Source: an uncultured Gammaproteobacteria bacterium
Lineage (GTDB): Bacteria; Patescibacteriota; Microgenomatia; Levybacterales; GWA1-39-11
DNA: 64,000 nucleotides
Assembly: GCA_964557125.1 (NCBI GenBank)
Contig: CAZKYX010000002.1
Location: 25,828 to 89,827, forward strand
Reading direction: 5' to 3'
The position numbers and the translations under genes are program-made. Below the pieces are notes generated by a model. It worked only from the letters and a program-made list of their open reading frames with translations. It was not told the origin of the DNA and made no database searches. Shown piece by piece: positions 29,201 through 44,611 of the stretch; within the stretch, counting starts at the first letter, position 1; every line of letters begins with the position of its first letter.

Positions 29201-29827
29201 TCACTTCTCTGCTTCATCATGCAGAGAAGAGGCTTCTTCGATGATTTCATCAATAGCTTCAATTTCTTCCTGTTCTCTCTGATTGCCATCTTCTCGCAGA
29301 GCTGTAGCTTCAGTGATAATATCATCTGTTTTAGCTTCAATTTTATCAGTCAACAAGCTTCTTCGCTCATACTCTCGGCCAAAAAAGTAGGCAATTGGGC
29401 CTATGAGGACAAGGGAGCCCAGCTTTATAAAGTTCTCAGTGGTTTTAGCTTCAAAAGCTTCCGGTATAAAGTAGAGTATAATCCCGAGAAGAAAAATGAG
29501 ACTTGAGGTAGGACGGGCGAGAAATGAGATGCCAAAGAGTACAAAGTAGAGAAAAAAGAAGAGCGGCGATGAAAGACCATTCGTTGAGCTCACAATCAGA
29601 AGAACAACGCTGACAAGCCCAAAAACCTCGGGCAGTGAGCCTGTGAAAAGTTGTTCCCGAGTTTTTGAGCGCTTGGTGAGCGTGATGTAGATAATAGAGA
29701 AAACGATAAGAATTGCTAGAATATAGCTTGAGTATTCAAGAAGCGGACTGTTGTTGATGATATATACCATCAAAACAGCTGAGAGGATAGTGATGGATTC
29801 GATGAGCATATATTTATCGTATACCAA
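29201..29827 (-). CDS. Membrane protein with acidic C-terminal tail (start TTG 29827 or ATG 29809)
   Basis: About 5 TM helices followed by an E/D-rich tail. Confidence 0.6.
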   Translation of the reverse strand: MVYDKYMLIESITILSAVLMVYIINNSPLLEYSSYILAILIVFSIIYITLTKRSKTREQLFTGSLPEVFGLVSVVLLIVSSTNGLSSPLFFFLYFVLFGISFLARPTSSLIFLLGIILYFIPEAFEAKTTENFIKLGSLVLIGPIAYFFGREYERRSLLTDKIEAKTDDIITEATALREDGNQREQEEIEAIDEIIEEASSLHDEAEK

Positions 29828-29850
29828 ATTGATTTATGCTTCAAGTTTGA

Positions 29851-29950
29851 TTTTTTTGTACTTTCGTTCCGTCGAAAGTACCAAAGCCTCTCGCCAAAGA
29901 GCGTTTTGAACGCTCATTTCTTCCATCACTCACTGAAAATCGGACTCATA
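29851..29950. repeat. Element E copy 2
   Basis: gtactttcgttccgtcgaaagtac hairpin at 29858-29881, followed by caaagcctct and cactcactgaaaatcggact. Homologous to 2362-2470. Confidence 0.7.
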
Positions 29951-30056
29951 CTTCATAAAATCAGTATTCGCCTGTCCATTTTCCGAGCGTTCATTCAGTC
30001 AGAATTTCGAGTTCAAATTCGCAATTGGCGATATACAAGGAGGATACTTATTCTTA

Positions 30057-30141
30057 GTCATGCTGAACTTGTTTCAGCATCTATATATGATCTTGAAATG
30101 AAAAGTTTCAAGACTCGTCAGCAGGAAGATTCAGAATGGCA
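30057..30141. repeat. GTCAT-capped composite palindromic element
   Basis: gtcatgctgaacttgtttcagcatc...gatcttgaaatgaaaagtttcaagac..cgtcagcag..gaatggca is co-linear with the element at 40937-41004. Confidence 0.65.
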
Positions 30142-30178
30142 ATTTTGAGGTAAATATAAAGATTTTAGAGTGTGGTGC

Positions 30179-30206
30179 CCCACCGTTCTGTAATAAGAAC
30201 GGTGGG
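30179..30206 (-). terminator. CCCACCGTT hairpin H1
   Basis: cccaccgttct / agaacggtggg 11-bp stem, 17 nt after the stop of 30223-30441. There is no clear U-tract. Confidence 0.5.
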
Positions 30207-30222
30207 ACGGGTACGTAGGATT

Positions 30223-30441
30223 TCAGGTGGGGAGAATTTTTTCTTCCTCAAGCCATCTGTCGATGGCTTTGGTTGCGGGTTCAAGAACAGAATCAAGTTC
30301 TGCCCAAGCATCACTTACAGCTTGAGCAGTAACTCTTGTAATTGCGACTTGGATCATGTGTTCCGCTTCAGCTTCATCCAGCTTTATGTGCGCCCGGACC
30401 ATTGCCTCTTCTGTGACCTTAACGTAATCTGGTTTTTCCAT
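30223..30441 (-). CDS. Hypothetical small protein (72 aa)
   Basis: GGAGAGG RBS and operon packing. Confidence 0.55.
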   Translation of the reverse strand: MEKPDYVKVTEEAMVRAHIKLDEAEAEHMIQVAITRVTAQAVSDAWAELDSVLEPATKAIDRWLEEEKILPT

Positions 30442-30479
30442 GTAACCTCTCCTTAGTTAGTCGGGTTTTCCTTTTTGAG

Positions 30480-30938
30480 TTAGAGCTTGGATTTCAGGTT
30501 CAACTTTGAGAAACCTTCTTCGGACATGCAAACATGGAGGGCATATAGCCATAACCAAGAAGAGCCGTCTACATACAGCCTTGGAAATTCCAAAACATCT
30601 TGGTCGGGAGTATCCATAAACCGTACTTTTTCAAGCGGGACTCCGGGCATATGAATGAGGATTTTCTTCCTCAAACCCGGTTCAAAGGAATTGACTTGAG
30701 GTTGTGGTTCTTTCAAGAAAAGCAGAAAGGCATATCTGCCAAAATAAAAGCCGTCCAGATGCGGACGACGATGGGTGCTTTTGACTTTTACCCCTTTTTC
30801 AGCTAAATCGGATACGAACACCTTGATATTCTTTCGGGCGTCCTCCTCGGTTGTATCAGGGATATCTGCTGTTCCGGGACTTAGGATAAGTATCCCGGAC
30901 TGGTTACCTTTCTTCAGTACTAAAACGTCTTTAGACAT
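30480..30938 (-). CDS. Hypothetical protein (152 aa)
   Basis: GAGGAA RBS. No motif recognised. Confidence 0.6.
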   Translation of the reverse strand: MSKDVLVLKKGNQSGILILSPGTADIPDTTEEDARKNIKVFVSDLAEKGVKVKSTHRRPHLDGFYFGRYAFLLFLKEPQPQVNSFEPGLRKKILIHMPGVPLEKVRFMDTPDQDVLEFPRLYVDGSSWLWLYALHVCMSEEGFSKLNLKSKL

Positions 30939-30961
30939 TGTTTCCTCGTGTTCTTCTGAAC

Positions 30962-31183
30962 TTAAGCGGCTCTTGCAGCTGCTTTCTTTTGGCGGCGATT
31001 GCGTCGCCAGTCACCAAAGCTCATATAGGCAATAAAGCCTGAGCTGGTGAGTGCGCTTACAAAAGTGCTTCCGAGTCCAGGGCCAATAAATGGAATCGGC
31101 CAGAGAAGTGCTTGAACACCCACGGTTACAACTGCAACCTTAGTGCTGAATTGCAGAGCCCCTTCGCCAAGCTTTTCTTTCAT
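30962..31183 (-). CDS. Small membrane protein (73 aa)
   Basis: AAGGAG RBS. Two hydrophobic segments and a basic tail. Confidence 0.55.
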   Translation of the reverse strand: MKEKLGEGALQFSTKVAVVTVGVQALLWPIPFIGPGLGSTFVSALTSSGFIAYMSFGDWRRNRRQKKAAARAA

Positions 31184-31227
31184 ACTTTCTCCTTAAAGCG
31201 TGTTTTTTGAACTCAATTGCTGGTTTA

Positions 31228-31437
31228 TCAGACAGTTGTAAAAACTGCCAGTATAACCCCGATGAGAAGAACTACTGCACTTGCCCAGAAGGCTTTAATT
31301 ATAAGGCGTCTGTGAGTTAGCTTGAGTCCGTCAGTTCTATGGAGAAGATATACCCATTTCTTGTATATAGGGTATCCTATGCTTAGAATCACACCGAGTG
31401 CTCCAGCTAGGATAAGTATACTAATCAGAATTTCCAC
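31228..31437 (-). CDS. Small membrane protein (69 aa, GTG start)
   Basis: AAGGAGAAAAG RBS and two TM helices. Confidence 0.55.
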   Translation of the reverse strand: MEILISILILAGALGVILSIGYPIYKKWVYLLHRTDGLKLTHRRLIIKAFWASAVVLLIGVILAVFTTV

Positions 31438-31592
31438 CTTTTCTCCTTTTTCCTACGTATGTTAAAGAGCTTCGCTTCTTTTGAAGCTATGCAAACCCTT
31501 CCGTAGCTTTTCAGCGTAGGAGGGTAAATGTACATCCAAGCTCAAAAGATACACAGCGAGTGCGTAGTTTCTAACTTAGATAGAATAGCGGA

Positions 31593-31601
31593 ATTATACC
31601 A
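31593..31601 (-). promoter_or_regulatory. TGGTATAAT extended -10 heading cassette 31437-30223
   Basis: Exact 9-mer on the minus strand. The downstream leader shares GCGAAGCTCTTT and ACGCACTYGCTGT blocks with other cassette leaders. Confidence 0.5.
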
Positions 31602-31614
31602 CGATTATACGAAA

Positions 31615-31672
31615 ATAAAAACTATGAGATATTAATAGCGTATAGTTAGGATAGGGCACAGGGTATAGTTTG
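31615..31672. repeat. Cassette junction repeat, short form
   Basis: aaaactatgagatattaatagcgtatagttaggatagggcacagggtatagtttgg is close to 33561-33622; identity about 85% by eye. Confidence 0.7.
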
Positions 31673-31696
31673 GAATTAAGGGGGGTGAGTTGGGAG

Positions 31697-31724
31697 CCCC
31701 ACCGTTCTTATTACAGAACGGTGG
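31697..31724 (-). terminator. CCCACCGTT hairpin H2 (inverted copy of H1)
   Basis: cccaccgttct-tattac-agaacggtggg, 27 nt after the stop of 31751-32113. Confidence 0.5.
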
Positions 31725-31750
31725 GACAAATTGTTGAAATTACGTAGGTC

Positions 31751-32113
31751 TTAAGCTGGGACCGCCCGTTTGAGCTTGAGCTCCTCAGCTTCGGTTGTAA
31801 TGACCTCAAGAACACACGTGTTCTTTTGGAAATACACATGACTGGTTCTCCCATGTCTGTGTATGCACATGACAGCCGGCTTGTTGATGTAGGCCTCAAA
31901 AGGCCTGCCCGACTTGTCCATGTATGTACAGGAGATGAGTTCAAACTTCCCACGAATCCTTTCGAATTCGTCAGAAGAGATCGCAATCCTGATATTGGGC
32001 AGCCGGATGTCATACCAGAAGTTTCCTTCTGTTTCGCAGCCGATTGGCCCGATGGCGAAGAGGAAATCTTCTTGGTTAACAATAAGACAACCACCGATAC
32101 TAACTGGATTCAT
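31751..32113 (-). CDS. Hypothetical protein (120 aa)
   Basis: The ATG at 32113 has a GGGAGGAAG RBS. The longer ORF-track start would overlap the upstream gene. Confidence 0.55.
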   Translation of the reverse strand: MNPVSIGGCLIVNQEDFLFAIGPIGCETEGNFWYDIRLPNIRIAISSDEFERIRGKFELISCTYMDKSGRPFEAYINKPAVMCIHRHGRTSHVYFQKNTCVLEVITTEAEELKLKRAVPA

Positions 32114-32123
32114 CTCTTCCTCC

Positions 32124-32414
32124 CTAGTTTTGAACTGGTACGTGCGGGATTGGCTTGAGAGCATTTGTATCTGCCTCACTCCAATTTCCGTCGGTGAGAT
32201 TGTTCAGAATGATTTCTGACTCAGTGATTTTGTAGTTTGCCGCTGCAAGCAGGCTCTGATGCTTCTGGATTTCTCCTTGCGCGTCGTACTGACGCAAAAG
32301 TGCTTCGGCAAGTCTGCCTTTTTCAGCTTGAATTCTGGCTGCAAGGTCGTTTGCCATTTCCATGAGCCTGTCCATCCTTTCGTCTTTGGGTTCAGGATAG
32401 GGTAGAATACTCAT
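32124..32414 (-). CDS. Hypothetical coiled-coil protein (96 aa)
   Basis: Operon packing and heptad-like sequence. Confidence 0.5.
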   Translation of the reverse strand: MSILPYPEPKDERMDRLMEMANDLAARIQAEKGRLAEALLRQYDAQGEIQKHQSLLAAANYKITESEIILNNLTDGNWSEADTNALKPIPHVPVQN

Positions 32415-32485
32415 TTAGTTTCACCTTTCTTTACCGTGCCATTCTTTTCAGGCCGTCGGTGCTCGTTTTCCACGATGCTTCTCAT

Positions 32486-32824
32486 TTAGAAAATCTGCGG
32501 ATTTAATCTGCGTATTTCTTGCAGTTCAGCTTCACAGAAAGCGTAATATGTGTTTGTTACCGATTGGTAGTAGTTTGCATATGCATTCAGTTGAAGACGA
32601 AGAGCTAGTTTTTTTGCAGCCCATGAGGTGACGATATGTTCTTTCCAGAAGGAATGGACAATCGGTAATGAGCGCCAAAAACCTGGCTTTGCCAATTTTT
32701 CGTTGAGTTCCATATCACTTTTATGTGACTCCTCATAAAACTCGACAAGGAATCTGCGAGTTCTTATATCAACATCCAGTTTTTCTTTGAGAATTCGTTC
32801 GCGCATAGAAATGTCACTTGTCAT
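32486..32824 (-). CDS. Hypothetical protein (112 aa)
   Basis: The ATG at 32824 has an AAAGGAG RBS that overlaps the kinase stop. Confidence 0.55.
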   Translation of the reverse strand: MTSDISMRERILKEKLDVDIRTRRFLVEFYEESHKSDMELNEKLAKPGFWRSLPIVHSFWKEHIVTSWAAKKLALRLQLNAYANYYQSVTNTYYAFCEAELQEIRRLNPQIF

Positions 32825-32834
32825 TTTTTCTCCT

Positions 32835-33251
32835 TTACCCAAGAACCGTTTGGAGGGTAAGAGTTTGCATCTTTGCCCTCATCGAATCGAGTTTGTATTG
32901 GGGCACGTTATGAGTGCTCTGGAAATTGCCGGTTGTGCGGACAAATCCAATTTCAATGCCCATCGTTACGGCGTGATGCACGTAGCGAGAGCATTCCCAA
33001 GTCTCAATGTTGGTGTTATCAACGATGACAGTCTTGCCTTCGTTGAGCAAATCCTTGGCGCGTTCCAGATTCAGCCCATGATATGCACGAAGCATGTCAG
33101 GGTTGAATTTGTAAACACCTCCGACCATAAAATAGTCGTCGGTGGAGCAGATGACGGCATTTTCGCCGATCTCATCCTTGAGCTCTTTTGCGCGCGTGCT
33201 TTTGCCGGATCCCGGAAGACCTTGCATGATGATAAGCTTCTGATTTGCCAA
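32835..33251 (-). CDS. P-loop NTPase/kinase (AAA_33 / polynucleotide-kinase-like), TTG start
   Basis: Walker A GLPGSGKST, then VIVDNTN. GGAG RBS before the TTG. Confidence 0.7.
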   Translation of the reverse strand: MANQKLIIMQGLPGSGKSTRAKELKDEIGENAVICSTDDYFMVGGVYKFNPDMLRAYHGLNLERAKDLLNEGKTVIVDNTNIETWECSRYVHHAVTMGIEIGFVRTTGNFQSTHNVPQYKLDSMRAKMQTLTLQTVLG

Positions 33252-33528
33252 TTTCTCCTGCCTTTCTTATGACCAGTGAAGGACTTCCTTGAACTTACGC
33301 ATACGCACAGGGTAGGGAGGAACTTCATGGTTTCCTTTCAGTTGTTTTGGTTCGGGTTTCCCCAAACCTTGACCTACGTTGCCCCGCACCACAAGGGTGC
33401 AGGACTATTTCAAAGAACCCTCTTTCGCTTAAGCTTCAGAAGGGCATGCTACCCAAAAGAGTTTAGCGATAGAGTTTTCTGCTCCCTCCATAACACAGCA
33501 AGTGCGTTAATTTAGGCACAGAATTAAT
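33252..33528 (-). promoter_or_regulatory. Long conserved 5' leader (copy B) of the kinase operon; candidate structured cis-regulatory RNA
   Basis: -10 TATAAT at 33535-33540 on the minus strand. 29-nt core GCCCTTCTGAAGCTTAAGCGAAAGAGGGT at 33417-33445. AGGTCAAGGTT plus a hairpin at 33349-33375. Confidence 0.5.
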
Positions 33529-33560
33529 AAGGCAATTATATCACGAAAGTGGGGTAAAAT

Positions 33561-33622
33561 CAAAAAACTATAAGACGTTAATAGCGTGAAGTTAGGACAG
33601 GGTACAGCGTACAGTTTTGAAC
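33561..33622. repeat. Cassette junction repeat, short form
   Basis: caaaaaactataagacgttaatagcgtgaagttaggacagggtacagcgtacagttttgaac. Confidence 0.7.
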
Positions 33623-33635
33623 TTGGGAAAACGAA

Positions 33636-33899
33636 TTATGAATTAGGGAAAAGTATTTTCCGGCCCGCCTCTTCATTTGAAGGGCGTGGCCGGAAGAGTG
33701 GAGTACGTATATGAGGCTCCTCAGCCTCAAAGTTGGTGCGGCGGTCGTGCTGCTTGACCTTTTCGCGCGCGATGTTGCGGGCGAGCTTCTTGATGCGGTT
33801 CCAGCTGCCGTTGCAGCAGCAGGGGCACCCGTAGGGACCCAGCTTGCGCCCAGTGCCATTCCCGAAGAACGGCTTCTGGTGATACCGGAACAAGTCCAA
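33636..33899 (-). CDS. Small basic Cys-rich protein (87 aa, TTG start) in a ~60% GC patch
   Basis: GGAG RBS and GPYGCPCCCNGSW. Three other overlapping ORFs exist in this patch, so the frame choice is tentative. The 3' end runs through the hairpin at 33660-33693. Confidence 0.4.
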   Translation of the reverse strand: MDLFRYHQKPFFGNGTGRKLGPYGCPCCCNGSWNRIKKLARNIAREKVKQHDRRTNFEAEEPHIRTPLFRPRPSNEEAGRKILFPNS

Positions 33900-34106
33900 C
33901 TGTATACTCCAATTGTCAATGTGATTGGCCTCAAAGATACTGCTTATATATCAGTGAGACAAACCCACGTGAATTATACAGAAAAAGAGTTGGAAATTCA
34001 ATACTATAAGATTAGGTTGCAGGTTACAGGTTACAGATTTCGGGTTTTAGGGAAATTTAAACAGCTAAATAACTAATAACTAATCACGAATAACAAATTT
34101 GTAGGT

Positions 34107-34135
34107 GTGCCCTGAGTGTTTTAAGCTCAGGGCAC
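34107..34135 (-). terminator. Hairpin after 34157-34498
   Basis: gtgccctgag / ctcagggcac 10-bp stem. Confidence 0.45.
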
Positions 34136-34156
34136 GATGTATTGGGTAGGAAAAGA

Positions 34157-34498
34157 TTAAGTGCTGATATCGATGTCTGAAAGACCCTCGGCGAGTGCGC
34201 CTAGGACTTCTCCGCTAGCTTCGGCTAGAGCTCCGGCAACGTCTCCAGCTCCCTCAAGGAGCTCTGGTAGGACTTGCCCTACTGCTCCAGCTCCATTGAC
34301 AAGAGCACCTCCCACGGCCTTTGCCCCTTCAAGGACAAGATGGGGCGGAATTGAGGTGATAAGCTCTTCAACAAGATCCGGTGAGGTTGCCATTACCTCA
34401 AATACGCCTTGGGTGGCTGCACCAACTTGATTGGCAATGCCTCCCAGAGCATTTGCAGCGGTGTTTTGGGCTCGTTTTCGCCTGTTAACTGGTTCCAC
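34157..34498 (-). CDS. Gly/Ala-rich hypothetical protein (113 aa, GTG start)
   Basis: TAGTG stop/start overlap with the upstream ORF. Confidence 0.5.
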   Translation of the reverse strand: MEPVNRRKRAQNTAANALGGIANQVGAATQGVFEVMATSPDLVEELITSIPPHLVLEGAKAVGGALVNGAGAVGQVLPELLEGAGDVAGALAEASGEVLGALAEGLSDIDIST

Positions 34499-34716
34499 TA
34501 ATTTTTCTCCTCGTAAATGTCCCCAACAATGTATTTTTTGTTGGTTGGATTTTCTTTGACTTTGTATGTCTGGCGATGCTCATGAGATACAAATTCCGCT
34601 ATCCTTTCCTCTGCCTCCTCACGAGAATTGTGTATGGATGCCACATAGGTGGTCGAATGCGCGTCAGTTCTCAGAACCAGATAGTTTATTTTTTCCCTTT
34701 CCCTTTTAATGTGCAT
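34498..34716 (-). CDS. Hypothetical small protein (72 aa)
   Basis: AGGAAGG RBS. TGGTATAAT at 34825-34833 (minus strand) lies upstream. Confidence 0.5.
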   Translation of the reverse strand: MHIKREREKINYLVLRTDAHSTTYVASIHNSREEAEERIAEFVSHEHRQTYKVKENPTNKKYIVGDIYEEKN

Positions 34717-35036
34717 GCCTTCCTACTTGTACTTGTCAATAAAGACCAAGACGAGTTAAGGCGGGCTAACTAAAACCCAAATTACGCGTGCTTTTGTACG
34801 TAAGTAGAGCTTAGCAGATAAGGGATTATACCATATTAAGCCTATAGCATATAAGGTTATAGCTTACAGGTTACAGGATGCGGATGAGTTTGGTAAATAT
34901 ATTAATTTATTAGCTAAAACCTAAAACCCGAAACCTAAAACCTCATTCAAAAAATTACGTGATATGAATCTACGGGAGCTATTTGATAGAATAGGGATGG
35001 ATAATAAATAGCTAAATAGTTAATAGCTAATAGTTT

Positions 35037-38000
35037 ATGGAAGACAAAAACACAGAGAACAAATACAATCCACAAGAAATTGAGGCTAAATGGCAGGAGA
35101 AGTGGGAGTCTGATAAGACTTTTAGTATGGATATGGATAGGGCAGAAAACCCCTTTTATAACCTCATGATGTTCCCATACCCCTCAGCTGAAGGTCTTCA
35201 TGTAGGAAATATGTATGCTTTTACAGGGGCTGATGTGTATGCAAAATTCATGCGCATGCAAGGAAAGGATGTTCTTGAGCCTATTGGGCTTGATGGGTTT
35301 GGCATTCACTCTGAGAATTACGCCATAAAAATTGGTCGTCACCCAAAAGAACAGTCAAAAAGCGCAGAGAAGAACTTTTACCGCCAACTAAAATCTATTG
35401 GAAATTCTTTTGATTGGGATAGAACAGTTGAGACCTATAGCCCTGATTATTATAAATGGACCCAGTGGCTTTTTACTGAAATGTTCCGTAAAGGGCTTGC
35501 TTACCGTAAAACGGCCCTCGTCAACTGGTGTCCAAAAGATTTAACTGTATTGTCAGATGAGCAAGTTATTGATGGTGAATGCGAGAGGTGCAGTACAAAA
35601 GTTGAGAAGCGTGACCTTGAACAGTGGTTCTTTAGAATAACAAGCTATGCTGACAGGCTTTTAGATGGGCTTGAGAATATTGATTGGACTGAAAAGGTGA
35701 AGACAGCCCAGCGCAACTGGATAGGGAAAAGTGAGGGTGCGCAGATTGATTTTCCTGTTCTTGAGGATAGAAATTTTGTACTGTTGCATGGCTATACCGG
35801 CTCAGTTGAGGCTAATTTCTTTCCATGGCTCAAAGAGAAGCTCTCAAAAGTAAGTACTTCAGTTTGGGCTGAGAATTTGCCTCACACCAACGCACCTGAT
35901 GTAGAAAAACAAGCTCAATTTGTGCTTGATAATGCTCGTTTTGATGAGAATACAGTACTTTTAGGACATAGCTTGGGAGCTGCAGTTGCGCTTAAGGTAG
36001 TTGAGAAGCTGAAGAGCCCCATAAAAAAGCTGGTGCTTGCAGCTGGCTTCATGCAGCCCGGATTTACAGACCATGCACGGCCATTTGAGGCTAGCTTTCA
36101 TTGGGAATTTGATAGTGAAGCTATAAAGAAAAATGTGGAGGAAATAATTATCCTGCGAGCTTCAAATGACTACGCTATCCCAGCAGAACGAGCTGATTAC
36201 ATAAAATCCCAAATTGGAGGAACAATTATTGATTTTGAGGCTGAAGATGAGCATATATGTGGTGAAATTGAGCCCATTGTTCTTGACAGTCTTTGTGCAC
36301 GTCTTAAAGTCTTTACTACAAGACCAGATACCCTTTTTGGGGCTACTTTTATGGTAATAGCCCCAGAGCATCCGTTGGTTGAGGCAATGGTACATGGTAA
36401 ATGGTCAATGGCAAATACTGATGAGGTCAAAAAGTACGTAGAAGAAGTTGCCGGAAAGAGTGATATTGAGAGAACCCATGCGGCAAGCTCAGGGCAAGCA
36501 GGTTCAGCGGAGGAGAAAACAGGGGTTGATTCCGGTCTTTTTGTGCTCAATCCCGCGAATATGAAAAAAATTCCAATATGGGTGGCAGATTACGTCTTGG
36601 CTGGCTATGGGACGGGCGCCATAATGGCAGTTCCCGCTCATGACCAGAGAGACTTCGCGACTGCTAAGAAGTATGGTCTACCGATTGTCCCAGTAATTCA
36701 ACCAAAACAACCAAATGAATATAATCCAACTGAGGAGCCATATATAGGTAACGGGGAGATTATAGGCTCTGATGAGTGGAATGGTTTTCACGCGCCAAAA
36801 GATATGGGGAAAGTCATAAGTTGGCTTGAAGAAAAGGGAATTGGCCTCAAAAAGAGTAACTATCATCTTCGGGATTGGCTTATTTCAAGGCAGAGATACT
36901 GGGGGGCTCCAATTCCTATGATTTATTGTGAAGACTGTGCAAAGAGATACAAAGGTCAAGTAGAAAATATGCCCGGTTGGTATGCGGAAAAGCCTGAAAA
37001 TTTGCCCGTTCTGCTTCCGGACGTGCAAAATTGGAGACCTGAGGGGACAGGCAGCTCTCCATTAGCCTCACACCCCGAATTTTATGAGACTACTTGCCCT
37101 GAATGTAAGGGAAAAGCTCGACGAGAAACAGATGTGTCTGATACATTTTTAGATAGTTCGTGGTATTTTTTAAGATATCCATCAACTGATATAGAAAACA
37201 ATGCTTTTGATATAGAAAGGACAAGGAAGTGGCTACCGGTTAATATGTACATTGGCGGAGCTGAGCACAGTGTATTACACCTCTTGTATTCACGTTTTGT
37301 CACAATGGTATTGAAAGATTTGGGATTGGTAGAGTTTGACGAACCATTTACAAAGTTCTTTGCTCACGGGCTTATCATCAAAGATGGTGCAAAGATGAGT
37401 AAAAGCAAGGGAAATGTAGTTGTTCCAGACGAATATATAAGAAAATATGGGGCTGATAGCCTGAGAGCATACTTAATGTTTTTGGGAGCTTATTCTGATG
37501 GTGGAGATTTTCGAGATAGTGGAATAGATGGAATGCATAAATTCTTGAGAAAAGTATGGAAGTTACTTTCAAATGTCACTGCGAGCGATAGCACGGCAGT
37601 CTTTGAGGATGCAGACAAGCTTAAATTTATGCACAAAACCATCAAAAGAGTCACCAAAGACATTGGGGAATTTGGGTACAACACTGCTATTGCAGGTCTT
37701 ATGGAATGGTATAACTTCCTTATCAAACAGTTAACAATTGACAAGCAACAATTAACTAGGGAGGAGACGGAAGTATTTTTGAAGCTTTTGGCGCCTTTCG
37801 CGCCTCATATGACTGAAGAGCTGTGGCAACAAACTCAGATTACAGATTACAGACGACAGATTACAGAATCTCAGAAATCAGAGATCGGAAATCAGAAATC
37901 TATTCATTTGGAAAAGTGGCCTGAATTTGAGGAAAAATATCTCGTGTCATCAACTGCGCTTATTATCGTTCAGGTAAATGGTAAAAAGCGGGGAGAGTTG

Positions 38001-38138
38001 ACAGTTGACAGTTCACAGTTAACAGTTAACAAAGAGATTGAAGAGATGGGTAAGGAGATAGCAGCAAAATATCTTGAAGGTAATGAAGTCAAGAAAACAA
38101 TCTACGTAAAAGGAAAGATACTTAATTTTGTTATATAG
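35037..38138 (+). CDS. leuS: Leucyl-tRNA synthetase with an inserted alpha/beta-hydrolase-like domain and heptamer-encoded C-terminal inserts
   Basis: HVGN (HIGH-type), KMSKSKGN, TTRPDT editing motif, RDWLISRQRYWG. Total length 1033 aa against about 800-860 aa typical. Confidence 0.95.
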   Translation: MEDKNTENKYNPQEIEAKWQEKWESDKTFSMDMDRAENPFYNLMMFPYPSAEGLHVGNMYAFTGADVYAKFMRMQGKDVLEPIGLDGFGIHSENYAIKIGRHPKEQSKSAEKNFYRQLKSIGNSFDWDRTVETYSPDYYKWTQWLFTEMFRKGLAYRKTALVNWCPKDLTVLSDEQVIDGECERCSTKVEKRDLEQWFFRITSYADRLLDGLENIDWTEKVKTAQRNWIGKSEGAQIDFPVLEDRNFVLLHGYTGSVEANFFPWLKEKLSKVSTSVWAENLPHTNAPDVEKQAQFVLDNARFDENTVLLGHSLGAAVALKVVEKLKSPIKKLVLAAGFMQPGFTDHARPFEASFHWEFDSEAIKKNVEEIIILRASNDYAIPAERADYIKSQIGGTIIDFEAEDEHICGEIEPIVLDSLCARLKVFTTRPDTLFGATFMVIAPEHPLVEAMVHGKWSMANTDEVKKYVEEVAGKSDIERTHAASSGQAGSAEEKTGVDSGLFVLNPANMKKIPIWVADYVLAGYGTGAIMAVPAHDQRDFATAKKYGLPIVPVIQPKQPNEYNPTEEPYIGNGEIIGSDEWNGFHAPKDMGKVISWLEEKGIGLKKSNYHLRDWLISRQRYWGAPIPMIYCEDCAKRYKGQVENMPGWYAEKPENLPVLLPDVQNWRPEGTGSSPLASHPEFYETTCPECKGKARRETDVSDTFLDSSWYFLRYPSTDIENNAFDIERTRKWLPVNMYIGGAEHSVLHLLYSRFVTMVLKDLGLVEFDEPFTKFFAHGLIIKDGAKMSKSKGNVVVPDEYIRKYGADSLRAYLMFLGAYSDGGDFRDSGIDGMHKFLRKVWKLLSNVTASDSTAVFEDADKLKFMHKTIKRVTKDIGEFGYNTAIAGLMEWYNFLIKQLTIDKQQLTREETEVFLKLLAPFAPHMTEELWQQTQITDYRRQITESQKSEIGNQKSIHLEKWPEFEEKYLVSSTALIIVQVNGKKRGELTVDSSQLTVNKEIEEMGKEIAAKYLEGNEVKKTIYVKGKILNFVI

Positions 38139-38216: not shown

Positions 38217-38852
38217 ATGGAGGATTCGTCAGGTTTTGCATCTGAAATAGCCCCATTTCTTAAAAAGAATATACTTCTCATTGTTCTCTTCGGTATTTCA
38301 GTTAGCCTCATCGGAGTTGGGGTAGTTCAGTATCTCAAGCCACAAAAACCTCAAATTGAATTTTCAAGTGCGACTTCCTCACAGGTAAAAGGTGTGACGG
38401 CTACTGGTGTCAAAATTTTAGTAGACGTTAGCGGGGAGGTTATGAGGTCTGGAGTATATGAGTTGTCAGATGGGTCACGAATTCAAGATGCGCTTGTGGC
38501 AGCTGGAGGGCTAAGTGAAAATGCAGACAGAGAATACATTTCCAAAAGAGTCAACCTTGCTCAAAAAATAACTGATGGAGCAAAGCTATATTTTCCTTCG
38601 AAAAACGAAACACCAATCACAACTACAGCAAATGACAGTACTGATTCATTCATAGATTCTGCAGTTTCTAGTGGCATTAGTATTAATTCAGCGAGTCAAT
38701 CAGAGTTGGAAAGTCTTCCCAAAATAGGAAGCGTAACTGCGCAAAAAATAATCAATGGAAGACCCTATAGTTCTGTAGAAGAATTGGTAACCAAGAAGGC
38801 AATTACCCAAAAAACTCTTGATGCAATTAAGGCAAGTATTACTGTGTATTAA
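38217..38852 (+). CDS. comEA: ComEA-type DNA-binding competence protein
   Basis: TM, SLBB-like segment, and C-terminal helix-hairpin-helix INSASQSELESLPKIGSVTAQKIINGRPY. Confidence 0.8.
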   Translation: MEDSSGFASEIAPFLKKNILLIVLFGISVSLIGVGVVQYLKPQKPQIEFSSATSSQVKGVTATGVKILVDVSGEVMRSGVYELSDGSRIQDALVAAGGLSENADREYISKRVNLAQKITDGAKLYFPSKNETPITTTANDSTDSFIDSAVSSGISINSASQSELESLPKIGSVTAQKIINGRPYSSVEELVTKKAITQKTLDAIKASITVY

Positions 38853-38853
38853 T

Positions 38854-40065
38854 ATGCGCTTGCCCTTTCTATTTCTTCTCATACTTTTTTCAATTCTTAC
38901 AACTCGTTATTTTTTCTTCTTTTCAGAACGGCACGTCTACGTTGTAGGGGATAAGATTTCGATGGAGCACACTTTTTTGCAAGAGCCAAAAAGGAATGCT
39001 TTCGGACAATATTTCTTTGTCAACGATATGCTAATTTCTCTTCCACTTGGGCAACCAATTGGGTATGGGGAAAGGGTAAAGATAAGTGGGGTAGTAACGC
39101 AAATAGAAAGCAAAGACAAAGAAGCGTTGCTAACTGTGAAAAATTCCAATGTAAAAAAACTTCCAAGAAATCAATTCTTAGCAATTACAGGCATACTCCG
39201 CCAAAAAGTAATATCTGCATTTGAAATGTATTTACCGCCAAAAGAGTCGGGACTTTTATTGGGAATAGTTCTTGGAATAAAGGACAAGATAGATACCGAA
39301 TACTATCAAAGACTACGAGATGTTGGGGTGCTCCATGTGGTTGCTGCAAGCGGAAGTAATGTGTCACTTGTGGCAGGTTTTTTGCTCGGTTTTTTCTCTC
39401 TTTTCGTGAAAAGAAGGGTTGCTATACTTTTCACGGTGCTTGGAATTTCATTTTATAGCCTCATTTCTGGCTTTGACCCACCAATTGTAAGAGCATCACT
39501 TATGGCCATCTTTGCATTTGCTGCACTTGCTTTCGGAAAACAAAATTATAGCGCATATATACTCATAGTTACTGCTTTTGTCATGCTTTTTATAAAACCA
39601 GAACTTATTTCTGATAGTGGATTTCAACTTTCCTTTGCGTCAACTGTCGGTATCATTTATATAAAGCCACTAGTAGATAGAATGATGCATTTGAAAGTAT
39701 TGAAATTTGTTAGGGATGATATAGGCACAACAGTTGCAGCACAGCTTGCTACCATTCCCATCATGCTTAGCGCATTTTCCTCGTATTCTCTGAGCTCTAT
39801 TGCCGTAAATGCTTTACTGCTTTGGACAATACCGCCACTTATGGTTGCAGGTGGACTTGCAAGCATCACTTCAATAGTATGGGCGCCATTATCCTTTCCG
39901 TTCCTTTTATTGGCTCATCCATTTTTATGGTACTTCGAGACTATAGTCGATTTGAGTTCAAAATTTGCTGGAAGGCTAGAGGTTGGCAGTATACCTGTAA
40001 CTCTTTTATGCGGATACTATCTATTATTGCTAACTTGTATTTTGGCAACGCGCAAGAAGACATGA
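38854..40065 (+). CDS. comEC: ComEC/Rec2 membrane channel portion (competence domain only)
   Basis: Polytopic protein with GLLLGIVLGIKD and GVLHVVAASGSNV, typical of the ComEC competence domain. Confidence 0.8.
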   Translation: MRLPFLFLLILFSILTTRYFFFFSERHVYVVGDKISMEHTFLQEPKRNAFGQYFFVNDMLISLPLGQPIGYGERVKISGVVTQIESKDKEALLTVKNSNVKKLPRNQFLAITGILRQKVISAFEMYLPPKESGLLLGIVLGIKDKIDTEYYQRLRDVGVLHVVAASGSNVSLVAGFLLGFFSLFVKRRVAILFTVLGISFYSLISGFDPPIVRASLMAIFAFAALAFGKQNYSAYILIVTAFVMLFIKPELISDSGFQLSFASTVGIIYIKPLVDRMMHLKVLKFVRDDIGTTVAAQLATIPIMLSAFSSYSLSSIAVNALLLWTIPPLMVAGGLASITSIVWAPLSFPFLLLAHPFLWYFETIVDLSSKFAGRLEVGSIPVTLLCGYYLLLLTCILATRKKT

Positions 40066-40904
40066 AAAAGTATTTACTGCTACTTGCACTCTCACTATTT
40101 GTACTTGGAACGACGGCGATTTATCAGTATGCAAAGTATACTGATAAAAAGCTGCATATAACGTTTTGCAATGTGGGACAAGGCGATTCGATATTTATAC
40201 GCACACCACAAGGTGCAGACATTTTAATTGACGGTGGACCAGCTTCAAATGTGCTAGATTGCCTTGCAAATCACATGCCTTTTTGGGACAGGGATATAGA
40301 AATTATCTATCTTACGCATCCAGATGCTGACCATCTCACAGGGCTTATTGATGTGTTTGAAAAGTATAATGTCCTTTATTTTGGAACAAGTGATGCGCCA
40401 AAAGATACAGATGTATTTAAGCAGTTAAACCAGCATATTGCTATGGAAAGCATCAAGAAGAATTTTATTTACAGAGGCGACAGTGTGAAATTATCTGATG
40501 GAGTTGCCATCAAAACTCTGTGGCCGACCGTTGAGTATACGCATTCAGGAGAGGAGGATACAAATAACTATTCGTTGACTCAGGACCTTTCGTATGGTAG
40601 TTTTCATGTCCTTCTGACAGGTGACATACCGTTTCAAATTTTGAATTCTATAATGCCAACTCTTACTGACATTGATGTTTTCAAGCCACCTCATCATGGG
40701 TCAAAGACCGGAGTAGACGAATATACCTTTCAGCACATACTTCCAAAAGCAGCAGTTATATCTGTTGGAAAGAAGAATAGATATGGTCATCCCAACAATG
40801 GAGTGCTTGGAATTCTACAACAAAATAATATCCCATATTATAGAACCGATGAGATGGGAGATATCGAGTTTGTAACTGATGGAAAGACGTGGAAGATTAA
40901 ATAG
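40062..40904 (+). CDS. ComEC-type metallo-beta-lactamase domain protein, separate ORF
   Basis: ATGA overlap with the previous ORF. TM, then NVGQGDSIFIRTP..ILIDGG, HPDADH and PHHGS motifs. Confidence 0.8.
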   Translation: MKKYLLLLALSLFVLGTTAIYQYAKYTDKKLHITFCNVGQGDSIFIRTPQGADILIDGGPASNVLDCLANHMPFWDRDIEIIYLTHPDADHLTGLIDVFEKYNVLYFGTSDAPKDTDVFKQLNQHIAMESIKKNFIYRGDSVKLSDGVAIKTLWPTVEYTHSGEEDTNNYSLTQDLSYGSFHVLLTGDIPFQILNSIMPTLTDIDVFKPPHHGSKTGVDEYTFQHILPKAAVISVGKKNRYGHPNNGVLGILQQNNIPYYRTDEMGDIEFVTDGKTWKIK

Positions 40905-40913
40905 GTTGTAGGT

Positions 40914-40933
40914 TGTAGGTTGTAGGTTGTAGG
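40914..40933. repeat. (GGTTGTA)n heptamer array
   Basis: ggttgtaggttgtaggttgtagg lies directly after the stop codon. Confidence 0.85.
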
Positions 40934-40936
40934 ATT

Positions 40937-41004
40937 GTCATTCCGGACTTGGTCCGGAATCTAGATCCTGAAAATAAATTACAGGATTTCGTCAGCAGAA
41001 TGAC
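40937..41004. repeat. GTCAT-capped composite palindromic element
   Basis: gtcattccggacttggtccggaatc..gatcctgaaaataaattacaggat..cgtcagcagaatgac, with terminal inverted GTCATTC/GAATGAC. Confidence 0.75.
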
Positions 41005-44341: not shown

Positions 44342-44350
44342 GGAGATAAG

Positions 44351-44596: not shown

Positions 44597-44611
44597 AAAA
44601 GGAAAAACGCT

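Follow-up and report, generated by a model that had tools for sequence, protein, structure and literature searches.

The closest described counterparts of the locus analysed here are the promoter-early stem-loop (PeSL) elements in the hyperplastic regions of T4-type phages (Arbiol et al. 2010, PMC2839356; Comeau et al. 2014, PMC4122927). These regions share four properties with our units: (i) a stem-loop terminator and a strong sigma-70-like promoter form a composite intergenic module, (ii) the modules adjoin small, mostly orphan genes, (iii) they are clustered in variable regions between conserved blocks, and (iv) close relatives differ by insertions, deletions and replacements with joints in the repeated modules; moreover gp30.3, a family of the type found in T4 hyperplastic regions, is present here. 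Complementary 5'/3' boxes, which our units contain, are not mentioned in the accessible portions of PMC2839356 and PMC4122927. The present units further differ from PeSL regions in that the host appears to be a CPR-like cellular chromosome rather than a phage, that they are operons of one to five genes with long structured leaders, that the stretch from terminator to promoter is occupied by heptamer arrays, and that swaps also occur at conserved RBS junctions.

Phage morons are autonomous promoter-gene-terminator units in prophages (lambdoid phages), and resemble our units in being self-contained transcription units with deviating base composition and accessory genes, whereas our units have no surrounding prophage, are multi-gene, are syntenic across species and have common regulatory modules. 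Integron gene cassettes likewise form arrays of small variable genes, mostly without known function, but here there is no integrase and no attC, each unit has a promoter and variation apparently arises via homologous recombination. Cyanobacterial heptamer repeats are known as STRR. Intergenic direct repeats of the heptamer TAACTGA are described for Beggiatoaceae (PMC4679880); in both groups, as here, short tandem 7-nt arrays are concentrated in intergenic regions genome-wide, whereas the present arrays comprise many heptamers, lie between terminators and promoters and are not cassette-specific. In icaR of Staphylococcus aureus (PMC3868564) and hbs of Bacillus subtilis (PMC5737220), pairing of the 5' and 3' UTRs controls translation and RNase access. 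What they have in common with our units is that a 3'-UTR element is complementary, over a short stretch, to the 5'-UTR region at the Shine-Dalgarno sequence or close to it; icaR and hbs are single genes with a specific motif, whereas one genome here has no fewer than eight operons with a candidate pair each of its own, the 3' box lying directly past the last stop codon, ahead of the terminator.

Results

We analysed a 64-kb stretch of DNA, the window, whose host chromosome looks CPR-like (Microgenomates/Levybacteria-like) judging from LeuRS similarity. Flanked by a membrane-protein gene and leuS lies a block of four units, all on the minus strand and each composed of a consensus promoter, a leader, one to four tightly packed small ORFs and a GC-rich hairpin (Table 1), an arrangement that agrees with the first-pass annotation down to the ORF sizes and the terminal hairpins. 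That annotation had also assigned a TG.TATAAT-type -10 to every unit; three of these are exact TGnTATAAT sequences and the fourth, in unit 2, is TGTATAAT. The window holds seven exact TGnTATAAT sites, five of which head cassette units. Similar units recur elsewhere in the window, as had been proposed, and we refer to these by their first coordinate; in all, no fewer than five separate islands alternate with housekeeping genes (leuS, comEA/EC, mreB and a two-component system). Units 3, 4 and 46084 have homologous promoters and leaders, and the promoter sequence of unit 3 is identical in the related species L107 (ttgattttaccccactttcgtgatataat). Within the unit 3 leader lie a 27-nt hairpin (33418-33444) and, past GGTCAAGG, a hairpin that covaries. 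One hairpin sequence is common to the ends of three units; the unit 3 hairpin is the exact reverse complement, with the loop flipped, of the unit 4 hairpin, and those of units 3, 4 and 46084 have no U-tract.

Table 1. Coordinates of the units and their parts in the window
Feature	Position	Strand	Remarks
Unit 1 extended -10, TGGTATAAT	34825-34833	-	exact TGnTATAAT; promoter kept in L107
Unit 1 genes	34157-34716	-	72 aa, 34498-34716; 113 aa, 34157-34498; stop/start overlap
Unit 1 terminal GC-rich hairpin	34107-34135	-	
Heptamer arrays between units 1 and 2	34014-34098	not given	
Further heptamer arrays	34854-34943, 33577-33617, 31631-31671		between terminator and next promoter
Unit 2 -10, TGTATAAT	33973-33980	-	TTGAAT ~18 nt upstream; kept in L107
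Unit 2 gene, 87 aa	33636-33899	-	
Unit 2 terminal hairpin	33660-33693	-	within 3' end of 87-aa ORF
Unit 3 promoter	33535-33563	-	TTGATT, 17-nt spacer, TGATATAAT; exact TGnTATAAT at 33535-33543
Unit 3 leader	33252-33534	-	~280 nt, structured
Unit 3 5' box, ACGTAGGTC	33371-33379	-	
Unit 3 gene 1, 138 aa	32835-33251	-	AAA_33/PNK-like kinase
Unit 3 gene 2, 113 aa	32486-32827	-	
Unit 3 gene 3, 96 aa	32124-32414	-	
Unit 3 gene 4, 120 aa	31751-32113	-	
Unit 3 3' box, GACCTACGT	31742-31750	-	immediately 3' of stop codon
Unit 3 terminal hairpin	31698-31728	-	
Unit 4 extended -10, TGGTATAAT	31593-31601	-	exact TGnTATAAT
Unit 4 5' box, TACGTAGGA	31451-31459	-	13 nt ahead of start codon, adjoins Shine-Dalgarno
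Unit 4 gene 1, 69 aa	31228-31437	-	
Unit 4 gene 2, 73 aa	30962-31183	-	
Unit 4 gene 3, 152 aa	30480-30938	-	
Unit 4 gene 4, 72 aa	30223-30441	-	
Unit 4 3' box, TCCTACGTA	30212-30220	-	2 nt past stop codon
Unit 4 terminal hairpin	30176-30206	-	
Strain-variable segment, alleles A, B, C	29848-31227	-	unit 4 distal part; within species
Similar unit	~2540-3220		
Similar unit, five genes	43830-45990	+	includes T4 gp30.3 homologue, 44877-45407
Boxes of unit 43830	43934-43941 (CGTAGGTC), 45930-45937	+	
Similar unit, five genes	46084-48109	+	leader homologous to those of units 3 and 4
Leader hairpin of unit 46084, 27 nt	46217-46243	+	
Boxes of unit 46084, 12 nt	46315-46326 (AATTCGCAGGTC), 48056-48067	+	
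Similar unit, seven small membrane-protein genes	51090-52990	-	TGGTATAAT at 52960-52968; leader hairpin
Similar unit, three genes	58290-59450	+	
Boxes of unit 58290, 13 nt	58398-58410 (AAGTAGATTGAAC), 59393-59405	+	sequence unrelated

The block had been described as having 45-62% G+C against 37% in neighbouring backbone genes; the contrast is real, but these figures overstate it because GC is 45.0% in the block (29851-34850), 41.0% in the window and 40.7 +/- 2.7% in backbone genes, with 200-nt windows within the block peaking at 61%. The departure of the cassettes from the backbone is modest and lies chiefly at third codon positions, GC3 being 0.44 in cassette genes and 0.335 in backbone genes (Mann-Whitney p = 5e-7). 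Judged by dN/dS, the block ORFs are real genes under purifying selection, with values for cassette ORFs of 0.11-0.13 between alleles and 0.08-0.37 between species compared to 0.08-0.15 for backbone genes. The 72-aa and 113-aa genes of unit 1, whose proteins gave no match in family searches, have dN/dS values against L107 of 0.13 and 0.19, respectively, and the 87-aa ORF of unit 2, the highest in GC of the block (57.6%, GC3 0.72), keeps its frame in L107 with 60% aa identity and a dN/dS of 0.37.

The AAA_33/PNK-like P-loop protein, singled out at first as the only recognisable product of the block, is indeed its sole Pfam match (E 2e-13) and also matches PHROG 2071 'ATPase' (E 1e-23); a 595-kb phage and a phage-like 90-kb contig encode homologues of this kinase. 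The gp30.3 homologue of unit 43830 (PF08010, E 1.6e-54) is 54.6% identical to proteins of T4-like phages, and the 152-aa family of unit 4 adjoins portal, MuF and SU10-capsid genes in siphophage-like contigs. These three families support a probable phage link, one half of the phage or plasmid derivation suggested earlier; nothing indicates a plasmid origin. For nine of the eleven block proteins no homologue was detectable in the phage databases searched, and none of the cassette DNA motifs tried was found in IMG/VR. The ORFs scanned within the 64 kb include neither an integrase, in line with the first-pass annotation, nor any other tyrosine or serine recombinase (IntI-type included), nor terminase, portal, capsid or tail genes, and the block borders have no tRNA or att-like direct repeats. 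An IS200-like Y1 transposase gene lies at 12730-13440, far from the block.

In the window and in L107 (backbone identity ~84%), the block has the same position in the order ComEC-ComEA-LeuRS-block-202-aa gene, and the units are syntenic without being invariant. L107 keeps the promoters and end motifs ('CCTACGT + hairpin') but six of the eleven genes; the other five are replaced, decayed or lost, and extra ORFs have been gained. Relative to L107, dS ranges from 0.22 (120-aa gene) to 1.55 (AAA_33), with 0.7-0.8 in the backbone. In its distal part, unit 4 exists within the species as three mosaic alleles, A, B and C, joined at the conserved RBS junction AAACCCGACTARYTAAGGAGA, where genes are swapped: the 73-aa and 152-aa genes differ between A and C with a dS of 1.0-1.6, their neighbours with 0.13 and 0.05, and a 320-nt spacer (29848-30170) is present in A only. 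Just outside the window, a whole 1.96-kb unit is present in strain L124 and absent in L121, with both joints of the insertion in the 3' half of a terminator and the sequence downstream. The unit 4 alleles, the turnover in L107 and the presence or absence of a unit between strains support the modular accessory-gene cassette system originally envisaged. In strain L111, 52 nt of the unit 46084 leader are gone and the box is retained. Among ~99%-identical strains, units 1-3 have 0-1% polymorphic sites, as does the backbone, and most of the block is equally invariant; the block is an old resident, mostly vertically inherited, and not a recent insertion. All assemblies compared (L001-L004, L098-L107, L111, L112, L116, L118) are colinear, and no inverted copies of units were found in them.

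A feature that the first-pass annotation does not mention is that five units of the window (3, 4, 43830, 46084 and 58290) contain exactly complementary, unit-specific boxes of 8-13 nt, one in the 5' leader, where it frequently adjoins the Shine-Dalgarno sequence, and its partner 0-39 nt past the last stop codon, just ahead of the terminator hairpin; both boxes always lie inside the predicted transcript. At least four box sequence types occur, which are unrelated or compensatory. The compensatory variants are CGTAGG/CCTACG versus CGCAGG/CCTGCG and CTTGCGAA/TTCGCAAG versus AACTTGCGAG/CTCGCAAGTT, and the leaders of unit 58290 and of the 195-aa unit of L121, although homologous to each other, have different boxes to which the respective trailers correspond. 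In a prospective test on sequence outside the window, boxes were found in both new wholly testable units and in the unit inserted in L124. No significant pair is present in units 1 and 2, in the unit near 2540-3220 or in the membrane-protein unit (51090-52990), and the 19 backbone clusters tested have none, their longest complement being a single 9-nt match of heptamer-array sequence 29 nt past a stop codon. Together, these comparisons establish the complementarity of the boxes and its specificity.

As the window is AT-rich and full of repeats, inverted repeats of at least 11 nt that lie no more than 3 kb apart are common in it (105 pairs), and what makes the boxes significant is therefore their placement and covariation rather than their length by itself. 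The per-unit chance probability at the required positions is ~6e-4 for the 12-nt pair and ~1.5e-4 for the 13-nt pair, that of the 8-9-nt matches is 0.03-0.13, and cassette units as a whole differ from backbone units at no better than p = 0.02-0.035. The predicted duplex energies are -13.5 to -27.6 kcal/mol, and the duplexes are short for pairing across 0.6-2 kb. The box edges are sharp, without G-U extension, and no target-site duplications are present.

Discussion

Combining the anatomy of the units, the selection on their ORFs, their mosaic variation and their phage-family links, all of which the analysis shows, we consider it fairly probable that the block as a whole is a hyperplastic accessory-gene region of PeSL-like operons in a cellular chromosome. 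Promoter activity, terminator activity and the biological role of the payload are predicted from sequence. In this model, the block would be a stack of autonomous small-gene operons. Each would have a sigma-70-type promoter that is close to consensus and has an extended -10, followed by 70-280 nt of structured leader, between one and five packed or overlapping ORFs and a GC-rich hairpin; homologous recombination would alter gene content. Crossovers would fall in the regulatory modules that recur (hairpin terminators, heptamer arrays, promoters and leaders) and, inside operons, in conserved Shine-Dalgarno junctions; strains and species would therefore exchange, acquire or lose single genes, gene blocks and whole units and yet keep the regulatory scaffold. 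A bacterial chromosome would then follow the same logic as the PeSL hyperplastic regions of T4-type phages, with several payload genes belonging to phage families.

The units could alternatively be ordinary lineage-specific core operons, i.e. native small-protein genes with strong promoters and no cassette-like behaviour, as the conserved location of the block, the purifying selection on the six genes common to both species and the backbone-like polymorphism of units 1-3 would allow. This explanation is already weakened by the shifted GC3, the gene turnover in L107, the three unit 4 alleles with dS near saturation beside almost identical flanks, the presence or absence of a whole unit between strains and the phage families among the recognisable products, and we regard it as unlikely. 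Similarly improbable is an integrated mobile element, such as a prophage in decay, of which the units would be leftover early or moron genes: it would account for gp30.3, the PNK-like kinase, the 152-aa family, a succession of promoter, ORFs and terminator as in morons and the deviating composition, but not for the lack of integrase and structural phage genes in the ORFs scanned, of border tRNA or att-like repeats and of IMG/VR matches to the motifs tried, nor for the dispersal over at least five islands among housekeeping genes and a position kept across species. Small, mostly orphan ORFs that vary between relatives are also what an integron-like or other site-specific cassette array would contain; such an array is very improbable here, as its defining features are missing: the ORFs scanned encode no IntI-type or other tyrosine/serine recombinase, the hairpins span no more than 29-40 nt, vary in sequence and have no attC-type cores, every unit has its own promoter, and the observed joints indicate homologous recombination.

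Within the PeSL-like region that we favor, we tentatively propose, with slightly less than even confidence, that the boxes pair at the RNA level between the 5' and 3' UTRs. In most units, base pairing between the two boxes of one mRNA would bring the ends of the operon transcript together as a loop, which could set mRNA stability, processing or translation of the first gene, as in icaR and hbs, and a ribosome that terminates on the final stop codon would sit where it could open the duplex. The boxes might instead act in DNA as short terminal inverted repeats bounding the payload, for inversion (phase variation) or for mobilisation in trans. Their exactness and sharp edges without G-U extension, the location of every observed gene-content change between boxes and the Y1 transposase encoded in the window agree with such a function, but the differences in sequence between units make a single recombinase site unlikely, target-site duplications are absent, strain-variant breakpoints lie at RBS junctions or terminator modules and not at boxes, the compared assemblies are colinear without an inverted copy, and both boxes always fall within the predicted transcript; we give this function little credence. 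A coincidental match of the boxes, as a side effect of the duplication of regulatory modules and of the wealth of repeats in the genome, is quite unlikely. It would draw on the CGTAGG-type boxes of units 3, 4 and 43830, which are not independent because they lie in homologous modules, on the abundance of inverted repeats and on the chance probability of the 8-9-nt matches; against it stand the low chance probabilities of the 12-nt and 13-nt pairs, the unrelated or compensatory box types, the invariable location of the trailer box between stop codon and hairpin, the lack of the pattern in the backbone units tested, bar the single heptamer-array match, and the finding that the box rule held in three units examined after its formulation.

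The heptamer arrays, which the first-pass annotation had seen as separating the units, do occur between them, but they are also found beside backbone genes and are not cassette-specific: 23 of the 33 period-7 arrays in the window are intergenic, intergenic sequence making up 15% of the window. Many different heptamers are used, and the arrays on the two sides of a unit are sometimes inverted relative to each other.

Organization and composition of the block

The block (29851-34850) consists of four minus-strand units between a gene for a 208-aa membrane protein (29201-29827) and leuS, as the first-pass annotation had described, and a GC-rich hairpin ends every unit (Table). The TG.TATAAT-type -10 element reported to head the units is exact in units 1, 3 and 4, and unit 2 has a variant; the exact form TGnTATAAT occurs at seven sites in the 64 kb, five of which head cassette units. 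AAA_33 is the sole Pfam match in the block (E 2e-13), in agreement with the P-loop/polynucleotide-kinase-like product recognized earlier, and against PHROGs this kinase matches PHROG 2071 'ATPase' (E 1e-23) and PHROG 505 polynucleotide kinase (E 9e-15). The GC contrast, previously put at 45-62% against about 37%, is real but its size was overstated: G+C content is 45.0% in the block, 41.0% in the window and 40.7 +/- 2.7% in backbone genes, with local 200-nt windows reaching 61%. The shift in composition lies mostly at third codon positions (GC3 of 0.44 in cassette genes versus 0.335 in backbone genes, p = 5e-7).

Heptamer arrays are indeed present between the units, but they are not cassette-specific. 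The window contains 33 tandem arrays of many different heptamers in 2-5 copies each, typically between a terminator and the next promoter, and with 23 of the 33 in the 15% of the DNA that is intergenic they represent a genome-wide intergenic feature. Arrays in inverted orientation flank unit 1 (34028-34051 / 34920-34943) and likewise a 304-aa gene (40896-40932 / 42279-42315). Intergenic heptamer repeats are known from cyanobacteria, and the arrays described here resemble them. They likewise resemble heptamer repeats reported from intergenic DNA of Beggiatoaceae (PMC4679880).

Positions of units, regulatory elements, boxes, alleles and repeats (window coordinates unless a contig is named; L-numbers are contigs from other assemblies or metagenomes)
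Feature	Position	Sequence	Remarks
Unit 1, unit	34716-34157		minus strand
Unit 1, -10 element	34825-34833	TGnTATAAT	exact
Unit 1, terminal hairpin	34107-34135
Unit 2, unit	33899-33636		minus strand
Unit 2, -10 element	33973-33980	TGTATAAT
Unit 2, terminal hairpin	33660-33693
Unit 3 (U3), unit	33251-31751		minus strand
Unit 3, -10 element	33535-33543	TGnTATAAT	exact
Unit 3, terminal hairpin	31698-31728
Unit 3, boxes	5' 33371-33379, 3' 31742-31750	ACGTAGGTC (leader)	9 nt
Unit 4 (U4), unit	31437-30223		minus strand
Unit 4, -10 element	31593-31601	TGnTATAAT	exact
Unit 4, terminal hairpin	30176-30206
Unit 4, boxes	5' 31451-31459, 3' 30212-30220	TACGTAGGA (leader)	9 nt
U43 (43830-45990, plus strand), boxes	5' 43934-43941, 3' 45930-45937	CGTAGGTC (leader)	8 nt
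U46 (46084-48109, plus strand), boxes	5' 46315-46326, 3' 48056-48067	AATTCGCAGGTC (leader)	12 nt
U58 (58290-59450, plus strand), boxes	5' 58398-58410, 3' 59393-59405	AAGTAGATTGAAC (leader)	13 nt
Unit 4 allele A	window, L002		73 aa, 152 aa, 72 aa, hairpin, then 320-nt spacer
Unit 4 allele B	L098-L106		72 aa, 119 aa, different hairpin; 152-aa gene precisely absent
Unit 4 allele C	L097 (wastewater sample)		diverged 73-aa gene, diverged 152-like gene, 119-aa gene
27-nt hairpin, further copies	L092 1171-1197; L094 7534-7560; L093 2295-2321
Heptamer arrays, examples	25541-25569; 40902-40938; 42279-42309; 34014-34098; 34854-34943
Adenylosuccinate-synthetase homologue	L085 10422-11873; L086 7936-9387; L087 10422-11873

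Regulatory sequences recur among the units. The promoter/leader regions of unit 3, unit 4 and U46 are homologous in pieces, and one hairpin, CCCACCGTTyy...GGTGGG, ends all three units. The copies at units 3 and 4 are exactly reverse-complementary, with a flipped loop, and a 31-nt inverted repeat therefore encloses unit 4. The leaders are hairpin mosaics. Of one type, which has a symmetric 3x3 internal loop, there are three versions (v1-v3) that differ in sequence but have like folds; a fourth look-alike, judged by eye only, is present in the leader of the minus-strand membrane-protein unit (U52). The leader hairpin that follows GGTCAAGG has compensatory changes (GGUUCGA/UCGAACC, GGUUUGGGG/CCCGAACC and GGUCCGA/UCGGACC).

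A 27-nt hairpin, CCCTTCTGAAGCTTAAGCGAAAGAGGG, in which a 3x3 internal loop rich in purines separates an outer stem from a short inner one, is located at 33418-33444 (-) and 46217-46243 (+). It is 100% identical in five JGI metagenome contigs representing two further genomic contexts, one 27 nt upstream of thyA and the other upstream of an excisionase-like HTH gene. The flanks in these contigs have no similarity to the window, and in two related contigs the sequence just 3' of the hairpin diverges with the hairpin unchanged. A hammerhead core or a K-turn was rejected by eye, as the hairpin lacks the conserved A9/G12 and the 3-nt bulge. Rfam gave no match to the hairpin in the window or in two contigs carrying it; more generally, it gave nothing at gathering score in the window or at permissive E-values over both cassette regions. 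IMG/VR contains no match to the hairpin, a relaxed core of it or the shared terminator.

Selection and turnover of the units

The block ORFs are real genes under selection. In L107, a contig from a related species (Logan run SRR32548951, ~84% backbone nucleotide identity), the gene order is that of the window, i.e. ComEC, ComEA, LeuRS, the block and a 202-aa gene. The six block genes common to both have dN/dS ratios of 0.08-0.37, with 0.08-0.15 in backbone genes, and between unit 4 alleles the ratio is 0.11-0.13 for the 73-aa and 152-aa genes.

Among close strains, four contigs (L001-L004) are 100% identical to the window, and nine of ~99% identity (L098-L106) are colinear with it from 30995 upward, through units 1-3 and leuS, to the limit of each contig. 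Units 1-3 have 0-1% polymorphic sites across the ~99%-identical strains, which is backbone-like. Only the distal part of unit 4 (29848-31227) departs from this, occurring in three forms (Table) with the swap joints at the conserved Shine-Dalgarno junction AAACCCGACTARYTAAGGAGA and beyond the terminator. Given that dS between alleles A and C is 1.0-1.6 in the swapped genes but 0.13 and 0.05 in the neighboring 69-aa and 119-aa genes, unit 4 is a mosaic generated by recombination with diverged alleles. Neither L097 nor L098-L106 have the non-coding 320-nt spacer that follows the terminator in allele A (29848-30170); it includes the hairpin ATGCTGAAACAAGTTCAGCAT and may be the remnant of a lost unit.

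Turnover is more extensive between species. In L107 the promoters are kept, with that of unit 3 reading identically, and the 'CCTACGT + hairpin' ends are in place with changed hairpin sequences, while a 64-aa gene stands in place of the 113-aa gene, an 80-aa gene in place of the 69-aa gene and a 108-aa gene in place of the 152-aa and 72-aa genes; the 96-aa gene has decayed and two additional ORFs are present. For the shared genes dS is as low as 0.22 and as high as 1.55, with the backbone at 0.7-0.8, a spread that again speaks for exchange between lineages. Just beyond the right end of the window, in the same species as the window, a complete additional 1.96-kb unit in strain contig L124 is inserted between two units that are adjacent in L121. 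Since both of its joints map to the 3' half of a terminator plus downstream sequence (GGGGCTTTTTCGTGGGAAAAACAATAC), whole units are gained and lost by recombination between repeated regulatory modules. Turnover takes place by homologous recombination at these modules and at RBS junctions. With three unit 4 alleles, the turnover in L107 and the L124 insertion, the units are clearly not invariant in related genomes; the first-pass observation is confirmed and its interpretation of the block as modular cassettes is supported.

The membrane-protein unit (51090-52990), with seven small membrane-protein genes, is the most strain-divergent stretch of its region: it is 96.2% identical to L111/L112 16134-18802 with 13 indels, compared to ~99% elsewhere, and the indels cluster in the promoter/leader (52921-53069).

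Matched boxes in leaders and trailers

Five units of the window carry, in the leader, a box of 8-13 nt whose exact complement lies past the last stop codon and ahead of the terminal hairpin (Table). This feature is absent from the first-pass annotation and would be new if it works in RNA. In U4, U58 and the unit of a 195-aa gene in L121, the distance from the end of the 5' box to the start codon is 13-19 nt, and in U3, U43 and U46 it is 67-119 nt; in three units the 5' box adjoins the Shine-Dalgarno sequence. Of seven units measured, five have a 3' box that begins 0-7 nt past the stop codon. Four units (U1, U2, the membrane-protein unit and the unit near 2540-3220) have no box pair, nor has any of 19 backbone clusters tested, in which the longest complement is one 9-nt match of heptamer-array sequence 29 nt past the stop codon.

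The boxes are specific to their units and covary. The cognate pairs of U46 and U58 exceed all non-cognate combinations, and compensatory variants occur (CGTAGG/CCTACG versus CGCAGG/CCTGCG). The leaders of U58 and of the L121 195-aa unit have homologous flanks, catttaca-box-aaaga, around different boxes, and each trailer matches its own leader. In strain contig L111, 52 nt of the U46 leader are lost and the box is retained. The rule was also tried on sequence to the right of the window that was unseen when the rule was formulated. There, in the L121 unit at 16584-17171, CTTGCGAA ends 13 nt before the start and TTCGCAAG begins 4 nt past the stop; the next unit has the boxes AACTTGCGAG and CTCGCAAGTT, again with a compensatory difference, and the extra unit of L124 has ACTTGCG and CGCAAGTT. 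The backbone units in the same stretch have no box pair.

The probability of a chance match at the required positions is, per unit, ~6e-4 for 12 nt, 1.5e-4 for 13 nt and 9e-3 for 10 nt, and 0.03-0.13 for boxes of 8-9 nt. Because inverted repeats are common in the window (105 pairs of at least 11 nt within 3 kb), the case for the boxes rests on position, specificity and covariation and not on length.

Differences between the boxes of different units argue against a common protein-binding site. Based on the observations that the boxes are unit-specific, always lie inside the predicted transcript and are avoided by the breakpoints of strain variants, we tentatively suggest that the two boxes pair within the mRNA, a reading to which we give slightly less than an even chance. 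Alternatively, the boxes could act at the DNA level in inversion or mobilization of the units. The sharp edges of the duplexes, none of which is extended by G-U pairs, would fit such a role; however, no inverted arrangement is present in the assemblies compared with the window and the variant breakpoints are elsewhere, making a DNA-level role improbable. For the same reason, and given that the boxes differ between units and no flanks are duplicated, we rejected an IS, MITE or mobile insertion cassette.

If the boxes pair in the mRNA, their duplex would come to lie beside the leader and terminator hairpins and the coding region would be enclosed in a loop. Because the 5' box adjoins the Shine-Dalgarno sequence in three units and the 3' box mostly lies near the stop codon, the duplex could gate initiation at the first gene or access of RNases, and a ribosome terminating at the last stop codon could open it. 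Precedents for interactions between 5'- and 3'-UTRs are icaR (PMC3868564) and hbs (PMC5737220); as there, a 3'-UTR element is complementary to the 5'-UTR near the ribosome-binding site, a likeness that on our side is one of sequence. The boxes provide a concrete and testable hypothesis for post-transcriptional control at the level of operons. Should they pair in RNA, they would be a rare example of 5'-3' UTR pairing that recurs systematically in many bacterial operons, and they would supply a simple rule by which to delimit such units in metagenomes from sequence.

Relation to known genetic systems

CPR bacteria have tiny genomes in which small orphans make up a large share of the genes. In the locus described here, the small ORFs sit in fixed expression scaffolds, in which the repeated modules of predicted promoters and terminators serve as joints of recombination, and the payload includes phage gene families. 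The 176-aa protein of U43 matches PF08010 (T4 gp30.3; E 1.6e-54) and is 54.6% identical to proteins of T4-like phages. The top phage match of the kinase (45.7%) is in a 595-kb uncultured phage, and a 54% homologue is encoded in a 90-kb contig of small unidirectional ORFs. The 152-aa protein belongs to a family of ~20 members with 32-39% identity and the invariant motifs NPGxG, GRY, MPGxPLEKV and PRLYVDGxSW, and every member looked up has portal, MuF and SU10-capsid genes a few genes downstream; its predicted structure has a pLDDT of 42 and a PDB sequence search with the family gave no match. For nine of the 11 block proteins no relatives were detected in Pfam, PHROGs, PADLOC or phage genomes. 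A tblastn search of 50,697 phage records with the ten block proteins besides the kinase (concatenated) gave no match, among ten block proteins scanned with the PADLOC defense-system models the kinase alone had a match, to a generic AAA domain, and scans of IMG/VR for close relatives of gp30.3 and the kinase gave nothing.

The closest description of the locus is that of the PeSL (promoter-early stem-loop) hyperplastic regions of T4-type phages. In the available part of the reports on these regions, a strong sigma-70-like promoter and a stem-loop terminator lie beside small ORFans, and close relatives differ by insertions, deletions and replacements that these regions mediate (PMC2839356, PMC4122927). 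To the extent of that description, the locus shares three features with them: (i) at the junctions U1/U2, U2/U3 and U3/U4 a GC-rich hairpin is followed within 60-130 nt by a predicted promoter, TTGAyT-N17-TGnTATAAT, (ii) small orphan genes, nine of 11 in the block without a family match, lie between core blocks, and (iii) joints fall in repeated motifs, i.e. the terminators for the L124 unit and, for the unit 4 alleles, the RBS junction and sequence beyond the terminator. PeSL regions as described there are part of a T4-type phage genome, whereas the units here are embedded in chromosomal backbone (LeuRS, ComEA/EC, MreB, TagA, HK/RR). We therefore do not file the locus as a PeSL region but suggest that it works like one. 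Genes under selection, joints in the scaffold and a phage payload together argue that PeSL-mediated shuffling, a mechanism of phage plasticity, extends to a cellular chromosome, and we consider PeSL-like modular shuffling in a CPR-type chromosome the probable nature of the locus.

Other systems fit less well. Phage morons are likewise autonomous promoter-ORF-terminator units of deviating composition (the promoters and terminators here being predicted). An integron was rejected: no recombinase is present in or near the block, consistent with the integrase absence reported earlier, as judged from the ORFs scanned in block and flanks (the 3603-aa ORF being outside the scan), and the terminal hairpins (29-40 nt) differ in sequence and have no common core as expected of attC sites, with each unit having its own promoter. 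A prophage was rejected since the ORFs scanned in the 64 kb include no integrase, structural or other virion genes and the window has no tRNA. We also considered whether the terminal hairpins serve as recognition hairpins of the IS200/REP type. This was rejected, as they vary in sequence from unit to unit and bear no relation to the REP-like palindrome near the Y1 transposase gene.

Combining the autonomous-looking units with their conserved promoters and ends, the payload under purifying selection, the turnover and the complementarity of the boxes, all of which the data establish, we can formulate a broader model: a CPR-type bacterium would keep a genome-wide class of exchangeable operons, each transcript being closed by its own 5'/3'-UTR box pair as a general post-transcriptional device (looping, processing or translation gating) that is part of the PeSL-like scaffold into which horizontally exchanged genes are taken up. 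In this full form we regard the model as speculative and rather unlikely.

Chromosomal neighborhood and further observations

The window looks like a CPR-type bacterial chromosome, a placement for which LeuRS similarity is the sole ground. The nearest MAGs, including a Candidatus Levyibacteriota genome, have LeuRS proteins 55-59% identical to that encoded at 35037-38138; among GTDB species representatives the best LeuRS is 59% identical and its gene neighborhood is unrelated. Between the cassette islands lie leuS, comEA/EC, mreB and a two-component system, and the backbone gene products comprise ComEA/ComEC, a response regulator, a histidine kinase, MreB, TagA, an M23 peptidase and an IS200-like Y1 transposase.

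LeuRS (1033 aa) contains an inserted alpha/beta-hydrolase domain (Ser_hydrolase / Abhydrolase) at approximately residues 240-410, which is retained in L107 (1008 aa) and missing from the nearest GTDB relatives (~865 aa). Heptamer arrays within leuS (37836-37900, 37996-38031 and 36386-36416; CAGATTA, TCAGAAA, AGTTAAC, AATGGTA) are read through in frame, e.g. ...QITDYRRQITESQKSEIGNQKS..., and in the L098 strain assembly leuS is split into two called ORFs (818 and 201 aa). The ComEC region (38818-40904) consists of two overlapping ORFs, 38818-40065 with the Competence domain and 39822-40904 with the metallo-beta-lactamase domain; the split is also called in strain contigs and suggests a frameshift or a programmed split.

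The gene for the Y1 transposase (12730-13440, 236 aa) is accompanied by three copies of the 22-nt palindrome TTGGCAGGGTTGCACCCTGCCA (12671-12692, 12929-12950 and 13415-13436), and the layout at 12668-13440 is of the IS200/IS605 or REP/RAYT type. Directly downstream of the 3603-aa gene is a perfect tandem repeat of 3 x 33 nt (ATAGATCCTTCACTTTCGTTCAGGATGACACGA, 14976-15073), part of which is complementary to 14678-14690.

Adenylosuccinate-synthetase family proteins (PF00709) are known from phages with 2-aminoadenine (Z) genomes. A gene for a member of this family (483 aa) is next to that for the homologue of the 152-aa protein in some siphophage-like contigs (Table), and these contigs also encode a DUF2828/vWA protein downstream of a 1.5-3-kb stretch without called genes.
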